Positions 8,657 through 57,800 are shown, counted from the first letter of the stretch. The stretch: DNA of 64,000 bases from Euglena gracilis (GCA_039621445.1 CP154954.1:9819849-9883848), one strand, 5' to 3'. Numbers and translations are program-made. The notes: a model not told the origin generated them from the sequence alone.

Positions 8657-11600
8657 TCAAACGGCGGCCGAAGCTTTCGTTGCGGCCGGCACTGCTTCTG
8701 GAGGGGCCTGCGACGAAAACAGCAGCCAGACGTTTGTTGTGCGAGGGAGGGGAGGGGCTTTTTAGGTGGGCTTTGCCATCATTGGCGTCCCATACCCACT
8801 GCTTTCGGTTTGTGTGGTATACCAACCTTTCCGGTTCAGTGCTGGGAATGGAGGGATTGCTTCTGTTCCACTCGCTACGTTCCATTGTGGGAGACTGGGA
8901 GCGTACTTCTGTGGCCGCCCCTTGGTCCACGATATTCCAGACCCCTGGGTTCTGGACGTAGAGGTGGTTCATGTCGCGGACCACCTTGGTGCGAATGGCT
9001 GCGAGGGAGAATAGAAGTTCGTTTTTTTTGCACCGCATTTGTTATTAAATAATAAAGTTAAGATATATACATTATTTCTACATATTATGTGACATATTTA
9101 TAATATTATAATATTCCGTTATTATCACATTATTATGATATTATAGTACTATAATGTTGTAAATTGTGTATTATCATAAAAAGTGTGCACTATAAAAGTA
9201 TACACATACTAATACATCACTAAAAGTATACACATACATACATTGTACAGTATACATTAGATTATATATTATGTATTATATCTTACACATTGCACAACTA
9301 ACACGACATATTAATAATTCTTCAATATAATATATGGTACATACATGTACATAAATTACATATTATTTTTATTTGGCAGCAAAGTTCTTGACACCCCCCG
9401 CGGGCCTGGGTCACCAGAGGGGGGGGGGAGTATGGCGGCACCCAGGTCCGACGTTCAGGATCTTTCAGTCGATTCCACCCCCCAACCAGGGCAGACACAG
9501 ACATTTTTAACAAAAAAATTTGGGGGTCGAAAATTGGTGCTTCCGGAAATACGGGAGGAGGTGGTGGGGGGGGTCGACCCCCCCCCCACCCACCACCCTG
9601 GCTGTTTGGCCGATTCGCGTTCTGCCCTGCCCCCCACTGCAGCCCCAACTGTGCCGGATCCGGGCGAAATCCATCGGATTTCCGGAGGATGGGCATTCAT
9701 TTTTTAGGAACATGGTCAGGCTCGGTCAGTTCAGATCGGCGCGCCAAAAAATTGGTCCTGTTTAGGGAAAAAAGTCAGGCTGGAAGCTGGGTCCCTGTTT
9801 CGGAAGACGTTTGCGTCGCATTTTCATTGGAATGTTACCAAAATTCAGCCCAAATTCTGCCTAACTGCACCAGAACGGGGCCTGACTTCTCTGAAAATTC
9901 TGAAAAGGGGGCACCGGTCCGAACCCTAACACTATCTCCAATTAATAACCCCAACTTTCCCTCGAAGTCGGACCCGGGTGTCGCCATACCCCCCCCCTGG
10001 AGATTGTAAATGCCCCCCCAGGGAACGTCAAGAATATTGTATATAATATTATATATACAATATCATATGCAATATCATGCAAAGCGTGTTGACGGACACA
10101 CAAACAGGGGTGGGCGTATATAATGTGCGTAATAAATGTAACACACGCAGCATGTAAAACATATGTTTTACAACATAATGCATACATTTGCCCGGATTTT
10201 TAATTTTACATGAAATTCTATTGTATTAGTGACTCTTCTGAAACCAAGAAGGGGGAAAAAAACAGCACAATCAGATATTCTTCAAGTATTCTTCATAACT
10301 TGCCACAGGAATTCATATTCTCTGGAGAAACAGGGATCGGAAACAGGGAATATCTTAAGGACCCCCCAGGGCAGAACAGGAAGGCCTGGTGGGGGGTCGA
10401 CCCCCCCCCCCAGGAGGTGGGGGTTGACCCCCCCACCCACCACAGCATTTTCACCATTTCTGGGAAAACGGGGAATTTGACCGGGGAAAATCTTTGAGAA
10501 TTTTTTGAGAAATGATAAATAAAAAATACATGATTTTTTGATGGAAAACAAATTTTCTTCACAAAAAAAATCTCAAAAATTGAGGTTAAAAATTGGTAGT
10601 TTTTAGGAGGGGGGTGAAAAAAAACGAAGGTCAAAAAAATTTTCGACCAAAATTTGGCACAGTCAAATTTTAATGACAGTTTTTCCCTTGGATTTTCAAT
10701 AGAATTTTTTGCTTCAAAAACCTCTCAAATTTCGAAATTTTTGAAAGTGTGAAAAAATGGGGGTTTGGGGGTCTTTGGGGGGACTTCCTACATGGGTCCC
10801 AAAATGGGTGCAAAATACACCCAGCACGGAAGGCGCCGGGAAAAATTTGGGAGTCCAAAAACTGGTGCCACCAGAACAACGGGAAGAGGTGGTGGGGGGT
10901 CGACCCCACCACCCTGGCTGTCCGGCCGATTCCGTTCAGCCCTGACCCCTTCCCCGGGTTCCAGCCGTCCGGCTGGAAAAAGGTGCCATCTGGAAAAAAG
11001 GTGCTGGCTGGACGCTTGCTGGGACCCTCCACCCCTGGGAGGTCCCAGCTTCTGGGGTGGAGCCGGCTGGGACCCAAAAAAAAACCAGCTGAACCGCCAA
11101 AATCAGCTGGGATGCATTTTTCAGCTAATTTTTGAGGTGAAAACCCTCAAAAATACAAAAAAAAATCCAGCCAATGCTTTCTCTCTCATACAAGAAGGGT
11201 TGTGGAGGGGGATGGGATAAGCCGCGAGGAAGGGGTGCAAATGGAAGGCATCGCCCCATACCCTCGTGCATGCCGGCGTAGTCCGTCTGGCGGGAGGCCT
11301 GGGTGCTGCGCTGCACCCAGCCGGCGACCCGCAGCATGCCCTGGGCCTCGCGAATGGTCCACCGCAGGGCTCAGAGAGGGGGAAAGGGGGCGTTCCGTCA
11401 TGAACATCGGAAATCTCAGCGACCACTCCCCAATGCCACCACTTTCAATCCAGACTATTTTTGCCTTCGCTGACAGGTTCCCCTCTGTTCCCACCTGTCA
11501 TTTCTCTGATTTCCCACCTTCATTTATGGTACAAAAACAAATACATGAGTTGAATGAAACAGGGGAAAATGAAAACTGAATACAACGTGCAGTATGGGGT

Positions 11601-54800: not shown

Positions 54801-57800
54801 CTTGCAGCCGGATCGACAGCACGTCGGAAGCGGGGGTTTTTTATAAGACCGAGGGGGTCCCGAGGGACCCACTCAGTTTTCCCCGAAAATGGCCAAAAGA
54901 ATCGCGAAAAATGCGAAAAATAGCACCCTTTTCGAAAATTTTCGGCGCCTTCGCCGAAAAGTATACCCCTCCCCCTGGGGACCCCCAGGGAGGGTCCCCC
55001 CACCCACCCTACCCCCCTCCCCAAGTCTTTTTCAGTCTTGGACCCCTCCCCGGGGTCCAAGACTGAAAAAAAAAACCCTGGTCGGAAGCTGAATGAAATC
55101 GAAACTGTTTGGAATCTTATTATATTATATAATCTTATTAACTATTAATAATCTTATTAATATCATGTATAATCGTATTATATTGGCCAGTTGTGGACAG
55201 ACATAGGGGGAGATGGCCAGTTAATACCTCTGAGCCAGGGTGCAGGAAGGCTGGTGGGGGGTACCCAAGAGTTGAGAGGGGGGGGGTTGGAACCAGGCGT
55301 TTTTTTAAGATCGGTGGTCAGGGGGGGTCCCCTCCCCCCACCACCCCCCCGGGGTGGGCCCCCCCGGGGGGGGGGGGAGGGCCGGGGGACCCACAAAAAA
55401 TGGCCGAAAAATCGCGAAAAGTGCTAAAAATAGAATTTTTTCGGCGCCTGCGGCGCCGAAAAGTATATCCCACCCCCCTCCGGGGGGGACCCCCCCCCCC
55501 CGGGGGGGGGGGACCCCCCCCCGGGGGGGCTCGGCCGGACCCACCCACCCTACCCCCCCCTCCCCCCCCCCGGGGGTCCACGACTAAAAAAACCCCTGGT
55601 TGGAACACCTCTCCCACGACAGCACCGAAAGAAGTATTTTGACCTGGGAAAAAGGAGTGGTGGCCGTCGGACCCCCTACCAAAGGGGGGAGTTGATCCCG
55701 CTCATCCACCAGCAATAAGGTTTCTGTGATTCCTATTCAGCGCTGACAGTGCTGGAAAGCAAAACAGGACTGCTCACCAGCAATTTCTTGGAAACACGTC
55801 ACCAATCATGCAGGTGCCAACTATCGCTGTGTCAGGACAATAAGAATTTGTAATGATAAAAGTCATCCACTTCACCGTTTTTGCATAAAAGTTTCTTCAA
55901 ATGCATTCTTTTGCAAATTGTTAAAAACAAGTATGTGTGGATGAAAATGCAAAGAACAAACACACATAAAACTCAGTAAAGAAAGTCTTCACCTAATCCA
56001 GTGAAGAATGTCTTCACTCCTGCCTCACCACATAGGACATCACCTCAGGCAAAGCCTTGATCATGGTGGAAGAGGATGCTGGGTGCCCGGTGAGTGCCCA
56101 CCATGCAGGTGCTGGTGATGTACCGCTGCTCTATACACATAAATTGTGAAACCATTGCAATGCCCTGCCAAACGGAGTAGCCCTCTTTGCCCATCGATAC
56201 ACATACACTGTGTGCAAGGCCCTTTTTCGCCCTGAAGAATGTGGCAACATGAATCTGCCGCACAAATGACAACAAAAATAGCAGTTGTTGGTATGAGATA
56301 CCTGCCACTAGCCCAACTCTCGTTTGCATAAAATGCAACATTATCCTGTATCCCCCATATGATGGGTCTCCCATGTGACCTGAGAGGCAGAAAATCAATT
56401 TGTGCAACCCTGGCACTGTATATGTGAGTCCCGCTACGCCTCCTCGATGATTTCAAGTCAATTCCTTGCTTTCTGAAGACAGTTGGGGAGGCCCAGGAGA
56501 TATCCCATCCCCTCCAAAAAAAATTAAGCCCCTGGATATGCATTTTGGACAGGCTGCATGATGGTGCTTGTTGAAATTAGCTTCTTTTTGGGAAGATCCT
56601 TATTTTGGGGCAGTCTGCATCAAACAATTTAGGTTTCAGAAACACTTTGGTGTGTCCAAAATGATTGGGATGCTGTATATATCTCTCTCTCTCTCTCTGC
56701 GCACGCAATTTTCTCAAGCCCCAACTTTTAAAACATCAAAAAAAAAGGAAAATTGAAATAAATGAAGACACACTTTTGGGGCATTTCACCAAACCCAAAA
56801 CAACGGGTGGAAACAAACGTTTGCTCACACAAAACGCAGGCAGCAGGTTGGAACCGTCCTACTGCCGGCACAGGCGGACCCCGGCTGGAGCGCACAGACT
56901 TCTTGGTGCTCCGCCTCCCCGATGTCTGCTGCCGCCGTTGCGCTGTCCCCCGCCAGCTGCGCCCGGCCGGCCACCGCAGCCGCATACCACGCTGTGAACT
57001 TCCGGCGGCGGGCGGAACCGCGCCACACCCGCTGGATGGCCACCGCGGCGGCCCAGCGGCGCTTCAGCGCCTGCGACGACAGGGCACTGTGGTGTGACGG
57101 GGGGGGGGGGGCGGGGACAGCGTGAACGGGAGCCAGAAATAGAACCCGTGAAATGCAAGAAAGGAGGAGTACCGATGCAATGAAGAAATGAAGTAGAAAC
57201 TGTCAGCGAGGAGTGAAAGCGGAATGAACGGCATTTCAAAAAGGCGGTACAATGGCATGGATATAAAAGTGGCAGTAGCTGCAGAATGGCAGGATACATT
57301 CATGCGCAGATGAAATAAATTACCCAGTGGTGGTCAGGGCGGTCCTTACGAGAGAAAAAAAAACTCCGCTGTCCCAGCACACTCAGTGAAAAATAAACAG
57401 GAAAATGGGCAAGAAATTTTGGCATTTTTCAGCGAGAACAGGTCGATATCAGGAAAAAAAATTATTTCTGGCACCCTTGGACCATCGTCCATCCACCCAA
57501 ATCATTAAAAAACTGTGTTTTTCGACTGTTTAATTTTTGCCCCCGTTCAAGTCCCACTCTGGCCCTTTGGCCGAATGGGGGGTGGTCCTTAAGGAAATTA
57601 AAAAAAACTTTCCTGTCCCTTGAGGACCGCCCTGGTGGTGGTGGTGGTGAACATGGGGGGCATATGACGAGCAAAGGGATAAAAGTGGTGATTGCAATAA
57701 TTTGATTAACCCAATAATGCATTCATTTGACAAAAAAAAAGAAGCCTTTGTACCTTGAACTTTTCAACCCAAATCCGCAGATTTTGATTGAGGGGGGATT

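Follow-up and report, generated by a model that had tools for sequence, protein, structure and literature searches.

Euglenid genes contain nonconventional (NC) introns, which have been described in Euglena agilis and Euglena gracilis (PMC12501133, PMC3935182, and PMC4770533). Knock-in genetics has defined the code for their removal as CAG at positions +4 to +6 and CTG at -8 to -6 in ends that base pair with each other, with a fixed 3-nt 5' spacer, a 5- to 6-nt 3' spacer, and a purine as the acceptor exon's first base, and fully synthetic 50-bp introns that obey these rules were spliced (PMC12501133). The most conserved positions had previously been given as CA at +4 and +5 and TG at -7 and -6 in work that also put forward, in 2014, the hypothesis that NC introns derive from MITEs (miniature inverted-repeat transposable elements) (PMC3935182). 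NC introns make up ~72% of introns in E. agilis, and direct repeats at the junctions, which render introns "slidable," are found in 84% of introns; the latter were set aside, and the discussion goes no further than saying that MITE-like elements "may be their source" (PMC12501133). A review speaks of repeats that are like target-site duplications (TSDs) and notes that NC introns are reported to be excised as full-length circles, rather than as lariats, once the conventional introns are out (PMC11282704), and both it and the discussion of PMC12501133 state the origin of NC introns and the enzyme that removes them as open. Here we describe a 64,000-nt stretch of E. gracilis DNA (GCA_039621445.1 CP154954.1:9819849-9883848; the whole of it is called the window) that carries 17 MITEs or MITE-like elements, two of which interrupt coding exons at the offsets of the NC-intron code.

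The locus shares with euglenid NC introns the non-GT-AG borders, CA(G) at +4 to +6 and (C)TG at -8 to -6, the 3-nt and 5- to 6-nt spacers, the terminal stem, the purine of the acceptor exon, and the direct repeats at the junctions. It differs in that the papers treat the repeats as a nuisance or as "TSD-like" and MITE origin as a hypothesis only (PMC12501133, PMC3935182, PMC4770533), whereas the youngest NC introns here are members of discrete repeat families that have intact 8-bp TSDs and also lie outside exons. The locus is a concrete instance of the published MITE-origin hypothesis and not a new kind of system. What is new looks incremental: the exact 8-bp TSD (3 + 5 = 8), the discrete families with copies outside exons, and a young-to-old series within genes. 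Our literature searches found, in the text portions covered, no explicit statement on an 8-bp TSD, the hAT superfamily, or orientation for Euglena NC introns; figures and supplements, such as the sliding-distance figure of PMC12501133, may bear on these points.

Two other systems are related. Introners and other MITE-derived noncanonical introns (Amoebophrya, Fritillaria borealis, Micromonas, and Polarella) are likewise families of transposons that bear terminal inverted repeats (TIRs) and TSDs and give rise to introns when they enter genes; they are removed by the spliceosome, which is sometimes relaxed, and the TSDs in Amoebophrya are 3 to 5 nt (PMC11282704). Here, by contrast, the borders follow the euglenid NC code and the offsets total an 8-bp TSD. 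In introners, the element or the TSD supplies GT/GC-AG borders, and no such solution exists for the MITE intron at 15432 described below. In ciliates, MITE-derived internally eliminated sequences (Blepharisma) are also removed precisely by the host, which tolerates mass invasion of its genes, but they are removed from DNA during development (PMC9942856), whereas removal here would be on RNA.

Exonic MITEs and the nonconventional-intron code

The window appears to be E. gracilis nuclear DNA, as two exon peptides retrieve eukprot EG_transcript proteins that map to it at or near 100% identity; we take EG to stand for Euglena gracilis. An exon at 12708 was first indicated by a loose end in RNA reads, and its peptide retrieves P0001 (eukprot EG_transcript_26412, 223 amino acids [aa]) with 100% identity. 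Exact peptide matching placed P0001 in nine consecutive minus-strand pieces running from 15704, the position of its Met codon, to 8660, which define gene 1 (8660-15704, minus strand). The borders of the introns in both genes were examined by enumerating every donor/acceptor pair compatible with the protein. Six of the eight introns of gene 1 are GT-AG, and two are nonconventional in that no GT/GC-AG solution is possible. One of these two contains a MITE (elements are named here by their left coordinate). Element 15432 (15432-15667, 236 nt, minus strand) is inserted in gene 1's first coding exon and is flanked by a perfect 8-bp TSD (ACCAGGGC, at 15424-15431 and 15668-15675), with TIRs that match at 13/14 positions. 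Across this site, P0001 reads ...PAVPAKPWSQWENY..., and all 11 protein-compatible cuts take out 244 nt, which is 236 + 8, or the element with one TSD. GT/GC-AG borders occur in none of the 11, and GGT-CAG...CTG-GCCCT (gene sense; intron 15427-15670, 244 nt, minus strand) is among them. The TSD belongs to host coding sequence.

A second exonic copy was found in gene 2 (25934-31265, minus strand; 8 exons and 7 introns), which encodes P0002 (eukprot EG_transcript_13537, 209 aa). The mapped exons run on the minus strand from 31265 to 25934 at 95 to 100% identity to the protein, and none of the seven introns is unambiguously GT/GC-AG. Element 30706 (30706-31167, 462 nt, minus strand) interrupts the first coding exon and has a TSD of 6/8 (ACCTCCAG / GCCACCAG); the corresponding intron is 30701-31170 (470 nt, or 462 + 8, minus strand) and in gene sense reads GGC-TAG...CTG-CTGGA. 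Positions 5 and 8 distinguish the two TSD copies (in gene sense, CTGGTGGC upstream and CTGGAGGT downstream). P0002 (...GATLVVPWSW...) demands CTGGT and then GGT, with position 5 taken from the upstream copy and position 8 from the downstream one; if either copy were kept whole, it would encode LVA or LEV, neither of which is found in P0002. The hybrid TSD therefore places the cut after TSD position 5, 6, or 7, which is consistent with the 3-nt/5-nt rule. Both exonic MITEs are thus absent from transcript-derived proteins as the element plus 8 nt (244 and 470 nt).

The element ends together with the TSD give N3-CAN...NTG-N5, the formula of the initial annotation, and this is the known euglenid code (PMC12501133, PMC3935182); the conserved CA and TG of PMC3935182 agree with that formula and with the variants found here (TAG, CAA, and CGG). 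Both MITE introns have their CA/TG-type motifs at the NC offsets, and the 3-nt and 5-nt spacers total one 8-bp TSD. The acceptor exon starts with G in both and in 8/9 NC introns of genes 1 and 2. In minimum-free-energy folds, 15 to 16 of 16 terminal pairs form in 15432 and 12 to 13 in 30706, and a terminal stem that starts from the first and last bases of the element forms in 14/17 elements in the plus sense and in 11/17 in the minus sense. The seven further NC introns of the two genes also have CA/TG-type motifs at +4 to +6 and -8 to -6. TSD identity over the nine is 8/8 and 6/8 in the MITE introns and 2-4/8 in the other seven, and we infer from this a series in which young MITEs decay into old NC introns.

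Given these results, we consider it probable (about 0.8) that the elements are non-autonomous, hAT-like MITE families acting as ready-made Euglena NC introns. Several families of non-autonomous cut-and-paste MITEs with CA(G/A/T)...(C/T/A)TG ends would make 8-bp TSDs on insertion. In RNA, the inverted ends would pair and the stem would be flanked by 3 nt from one copy of the TSD and 5 nt from its counterpart, an arrangement that would constitute the cis code of NC (non-GT-AG, non-lariat) introns. The NC machinery would then take out the element and exactly one TSD (3 + 5 = 8), restoring the reading frame that preceded the insertion. Exonic copies would turn into new NC introns, copies in introns or noncoding DNA would persist, and over time the TSD and the TIRs would decay and leave ordinary NC introns. 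Young MITEs with intact 8-bp TSDs appear to stand as NC introns beside decayed ones in the same genes, and the 3 + 5 arithmetic makes the MITE-origin hypothesis testable genome-wide through the repeat lengths of slidable introns, family clustering, and a partner transposase. A broader proposal is that the splicing code includes the 8-bp TSD, the NC machinery measuring 3 nt and 5 nt from the TIR stem and thereby taking out exactly one TSD, that MITEs are "born spliceable," that the bulk of NC introns are fossil insertions, and that the direction of transcription influences whether copies insert or are retained, which would account for the shared orientation of nearly all family members in the window; we hold this extension to be tentative and, taken whole, somewhat doubtful.

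MITEs were also found inside other introns, namely, three in GT-AG introns of gene 1 (14895, 12342, and 9487) and one in intron 6 of gene 2 (27093). The initial annotation had held that any insertion is potentially removable at the RNA level. The two exonic copies absent from the proteins, 15432 and 30706, belong to families C and D; the three copies of families A and B (CAT...ATG ends) with a known context are all intronic (3/3), which lends the claim no support for these two families.

MITE families, target-site duplications, and mobility

For each of the 15 left ends listed in the initial annotation, the best right end was sought, with TIRs scored over 14 nt and TSDs over 8 nt. All eight sites that had been credited with perfect 8-bp TSDs have them, with TIRs of 10-13/14, and all seven imperfect ones were likewise recovered in place (three at 7/8 and four at 6/8). 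The proposed CA(G/T/A) ends apply to most elements, the exceptions being 54831, which begins CGG, and 30706, which finishes CTA instead of CTG. Two further elements lie beyond the range of that list: 57335-57634 (300 nt; TSD GTGGTGGT, low complexity; TIR 13/14) and the MITE-like 59937-60109 (173 nt; TSD CCTCCTCC, low complexity; TIR 10/14; CAA...TTG ends). The 17 elements are 78 to 550 nt long and sum to 4,975 nt, and their TSDs are perfect over 8 bp in 10, 7/8 in 3, and 6/8 in 4.

The number of such elements was compared with chance in two ways. A blind scan for any 4-nt inverted seed with a TIR of at least 10/14 and perfect flanks, in which CA..TG ends were not required, detected 13 TIR pairs flanked by perfect 8-nt repeats in the window versus 1, 0, and 0 in three block shuffles. 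CA...TG elements account for 7/13 of these pairs, and at flank lengths of 9, 10, 11, and 12 nt the scan gave 2, 2, 2, and 1 pairs. A scan with relaxed settings (CA..TG ends with TIRs matching at no fewer than 10/14 positions, TSD of at least 6/8, 60 to 1,000 nt) gave 43 pairs in the window, many being redundant hits within tandem repeats, versus 1 to 6 per shuffle in ten shuffles. Because the shuffles also yield pairs at these settings, 33539 and 44093, as lone 6/8 candidates, are unsafe by themselves.

BLAST grouping of the 17 elements bears out the claim of at least five families, with within-family identity of ~70 to 85% among the copies in the window. Family A comprises 14895-15258 (364 nt; TSD GGTGCGAC, 8/8; TIR 12/14; CAT...ATG ends; within GT-AG intron 2 of gene 1), for which an alternative reading with a 10-nt repeat is also possible; 27093-27424 (332 nt; TSD CATCCAAC, 8/8; TIR 10/14), nested in non-GT-AG intron 6 of gene 2; and 38572-38879 (308 nt; TSD 6/8). 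The two copies of family B, both with CAT...ATG ends, are 12342-12672 (331 nt; TSD 7/8; within GT-AG intron 5 of gene 1) and 49911-50239 (329 nt; TSD CTCGCGGC, 8/8). In family C, the exonic 15432-15667 is 78% identical over its whole length to 50598-50865 (268 nt; TSD GTGGGTGG, 8/8), the TSDs of which sit in a simple-sequence GTGG context where 12 nt match too. Weaker links connect family C to 55294-55598 (305 nt; TSD GTTGGAAC, 8/8; TIR 13/14) and 54831-55080 (250 nt; TSD GTCGGAAG, 8/8; TIR 11/14; begins CGG and finishes CTG). Family D joins the exonic 30706-31167 to 9487-9629 (143 nt; TSD 7/8; within GT-AG intron 7 of gene 1). The singletons are 57335, 59937, 20356-20720 (365 nt; TSD CCGCTGGG, 8/8; TIR 13/14), and the MITE-like 15850-16399 (550 nt; TSD 7/8; TIR 13/14; CAA...TTG ends), which has internal tandem TTTTCGGCCA-like units and is located 146 nt upstream of the gene 1 start codon. 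The weakly supported MITE-like candidates 33539-33616 (78 nt; TSD 6/8; end CAGGGCTG) and 44093-44273 (181 nt; TSD 6/8) have just family D-like ends in common.

One empty site was found in DNA. In DNA run X1, a joint from 20349 to 20723 skips 373 nt, which is the 365 nt of element 20356 plus 8 (6 contigs, side 23). The flanks of this site are several-fold repeated, so paralogous empty sites are most likely. A difference of the element plus 8 fits insertion with an 8-bp duplication and speaks against spread through RNA. The elements had also been called recently active; that description leans on the intact TSDs and this one empty site, and the copies in the window are just ~70 to 85% alike.

Alternative explanations

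Several observations count against the reading of these elements as non-autonomous MITEs that serve as NC introns, and each is given here beside the explanation it would favor. The first set concerns the superfamily. An 8-bp TSD with CAGGG/TAGGG ends, the latter as in Ac-like elements, is the classic signature of hAT transposons, whose TIR consensus starts YARNG and whose TSD consensus is nTnnnnAn. The elements resemble hAT MITEs, for example, those of plants, in the 8-bp TSD, short TIRs, CAGGG/TAGGG-type ends, lack of coding capacity, and small size (78 to 550 nt here), and judging from TSD length and end motifs, we suggest that they belong to this superfamily. They differ from hAT MITEs in that several families end CATAC, CATAG, or CAGGC and in that exonic copies would be tolerated through non-spliceosomal removal from RNA. 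CAGGG (families D, E, and G) and CAAGG (59937) fit YARNG; CAGGA (30706), CAGGC (family C and 55294), CAAGC (15850), CATAC/CATAG (families A and B), and CGGGG (54831) depart from the hAT consensus. The ten perfect TSDs fit nTnnnnAn weakly, with T at position 2 in 5/10 and A at position 7 in 4/10, and three of the ten (50598, 57335, and 59937) are of low complexity. The initial annotation had recognized no transposase ORF in the window, and Pfam likewise found no transposase domain in the 300 of 345 stop-to-stop open reading frames (ORFs) of at least 90 aa that were scanned. These points would suit real spliceable elements mobilized by a non-hAT superfamily or by several unrelated transposases, with the shared CA..TG ends and 8-bp TSD being what survived selection for NC splicing inside genes. 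We consider this unlikely, though it is the strongest of the alternatives, given that some families do have the hAT signature and that copies in conventional introns, where NC splicing is unneeded, keep equal ends and TSD length.

The second set concerns splicing. Reads were placed on 12300-32299 from RNA runs X21-X23 and DNA run X1; RNA depth was mostly below 8, and ~80% of the reads continue into unlike sequence, meaning that these reads are repeat derived. Among the 15 joints listed for this interval of low RNA depth, nearly all from the DNA run only, no RNA junction crosses either exonic MITE. Insertion-free alleles could in principle yield the same proteins, and the transcriptome strain differs from the window: the source of P0002 has its sole amino acid difference at 28698, where the window has G (Pro, minus strand) and all X21-X23 RNA reads, the X1 DNA reads, and the eukprot protein agree on T (Thr). 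The mismatch reflects a difference of strain or allele that separates the public runs from the assembly. At the 30706 site, the three compatible cuts all remove 470 nt and one is GC-AG, which leaves the intron ambiguous in that a spliceosomal reading is possible; the hybrid TSD also counts among the four sequences that the ancestral target could have had. The spacers of intron 27003-27837 of gene 2 total ~10 rather than 8. The strain difference and the missing RNA junctions, with the empty site known for another element (20356), would suit a reading in which the elements were ordinary MITEs with no link to splicing and P0001 and P0002 came from alleles or strains that lack the insertions. That explanation is improbable: genes 1 and 2 hold seven other non-GT-AG introns with a like end architecture that are necessarily spliced, the element ends and TSD match an experimentally proven code (PMC12501133), and the insertions into the first coding exons would, if left unspliced, abolish the two ORFs of the assembled strain. 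We infer that the absence of the elements from mRNA is due to splicing and not to empty alleles.

The third set concerns orientation. The 17 elements were compared with the window by BLAST and counted as one element per locus, with 10367-10409/10813-10944 and 24828-24865/25085-25326 each merged. Cross-matches were found at 18 loci, 17 of them plus/plus, and 10/11 independent within-family comparisons are in the same orientation, which is unexpected for plain cut-and-paste insertion; the sole opposite one is an 82-nt, 54-bit match inside the simple-sequence tract at 53.7 kb. The elements had been described as orientation independent, with strong orientation bias named as speaking against this. 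The symmetric ends and the terminal stems in both senses agree with the description, and the orientation of the copies does not. Both mapped genes are on the minus strand, windows of G+C content at third codon positions (GC3) hint at minus-strand genes at 41-46 kb and 49-63.6 kb as well, and nearly all 2-kb bins and 14/17 elements show positive AT skew. The orientation pattern, which comes from one window, may reflect selection, insertion preference, or regional strand asymmetry; if general, it would constrain element insertion or tolerance. Spread through RNA, in which the excised circular NC-intron RNA would be reverse-spliced or reverse-transcribed into new sites, would explain the single orientation and has a possible substrate in the reported full-length circles (PMC11282704), but it is the least probable explanation of all, since a circle would bring along its old 8 nt and its new flanks would not be a copy of the target, yet the ten perfect TSDs are each a different sequence, that of 15432 is part of host coding sequence, one copy (15850) lies upstream of a start codon, and the DNA empty site differs by exactly the element plus 8.

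Other introns and features of the window

The remaining NC introns of the MITE-bearing genes are older in appearance. In gene 1, NC intron 6 (11360-11762, 403 nt, minus strand) reads GGA-TAG...CTG-CGGTG and has a TSD remnant of 2/8. The GT-AG introns of this gene that contain MITEs, all on the minus strand, are intron 2 (13870-15356, with 14895), intron 5 (11786-12708, with 12342), and intron 7 (8999-11261, with 9487). Between GT-AG intron 5 and NC intron 6 lies a 24-nt micro-exon (11762-11785, minus strand; AKVDGTSM), to which protein mapping and RNA both point: in run X22, 40 reads have a loose end at 12708, and their last 23 letters match 11762-11784. In gene 2, the six other NC introns (25992-30644, minus strand) have decayed TSDs of 2-4/8. 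They are 30131-30644 and 29259-30072 (both CAG..GTG), 28721-29111 (CGG..CCG), 27883-28573 (CAG..CTG, with a 6-nt 3' spacer), intron 6 at 27003-27837 (odd spacers; it holds the nested MITE 27093-27424), and 25992-26981 (CAA..TTG). The motifs of intron 28721-29111 lie in a 7-bp inverted repeat without mismatches (CGGGTAC/GTACCCG), and their middle pair has changed in a compensatory way, which fits the published CD'G-CH'G rule. Intron types are thus very unevenly split between these neighbors, with 7/7 introns of gene 2 lacking an unambiguous GT/GC-AG solution and gene 1 having 6 GT-AG and 2 NC introns.

Pfam found nothing above the cutoff in the 300 scanned ORFs or in P0001 and P0002, and Rfam and tRNA scans found nothing. 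For the putative third gene on the minus strand (~49-63.6 kb by GC3), the query 58728-58991 (minus strand) retrieved nothing among longer proteins, and in the representative library it retrieved just an 81-aa unspliced ORF (P0003) and an unrelated repeat protein. ORFs that span the junctions after removal of the elements in silico are ambiguous alone, since open frames are common at this G+C content. Word depth in X1 was rejected as a measure of copy number because bins with nothing but G/C homopolymers or tandem repeats reach the depth of MITE bins. Among the indexed sequencing runs, no RNA run was listed as containing the window, and the word shares of 0.14 to 0.17 with six small runs may simply come from repeats. 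A metagenome scan with an 18-nt end motif gave 17 loci with a single match each and no partner TIR or extended similarity, and these were set aside as chance matches.

Additional repeats were observed in the window. A 578-nt element at 10367-10944 in intron 7 of gene 1 has family D-like ends (CAGGGCAG...CAGCCCTG), a TIR of 11/14, and a flank of 3/8, and probably represents an older copy. Other fragments of the families are located at 18814-18882, 24828-25326, and 37788-37904. At 49054-49889, an 836-nt pair whose ends are not CA..TG has a TIR of 12/14 (CCGGCCCACTCC.../...GGGTGGGCCGG) and a flank that matches over all 8 nt (CCAGCACC); this pair may belong to another class of element or have arisen by chance. 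Intron 2 of gene 1 contains a near-perfect 250-nt palindrome (14144-14393) with two 124-nt arms that are 91% complementary and 2 nt apart; within it is a CAG...CTG pair (14159-14378) with a TIR of 14/14 and a flanking repeat of just 4/8. Finally, long (CATG/CATA)n and GT-rich simple-sequence tracts at 47390-48100 and 53480-54080 are the source of most spurious TIR/TSD pairs in naive scans.

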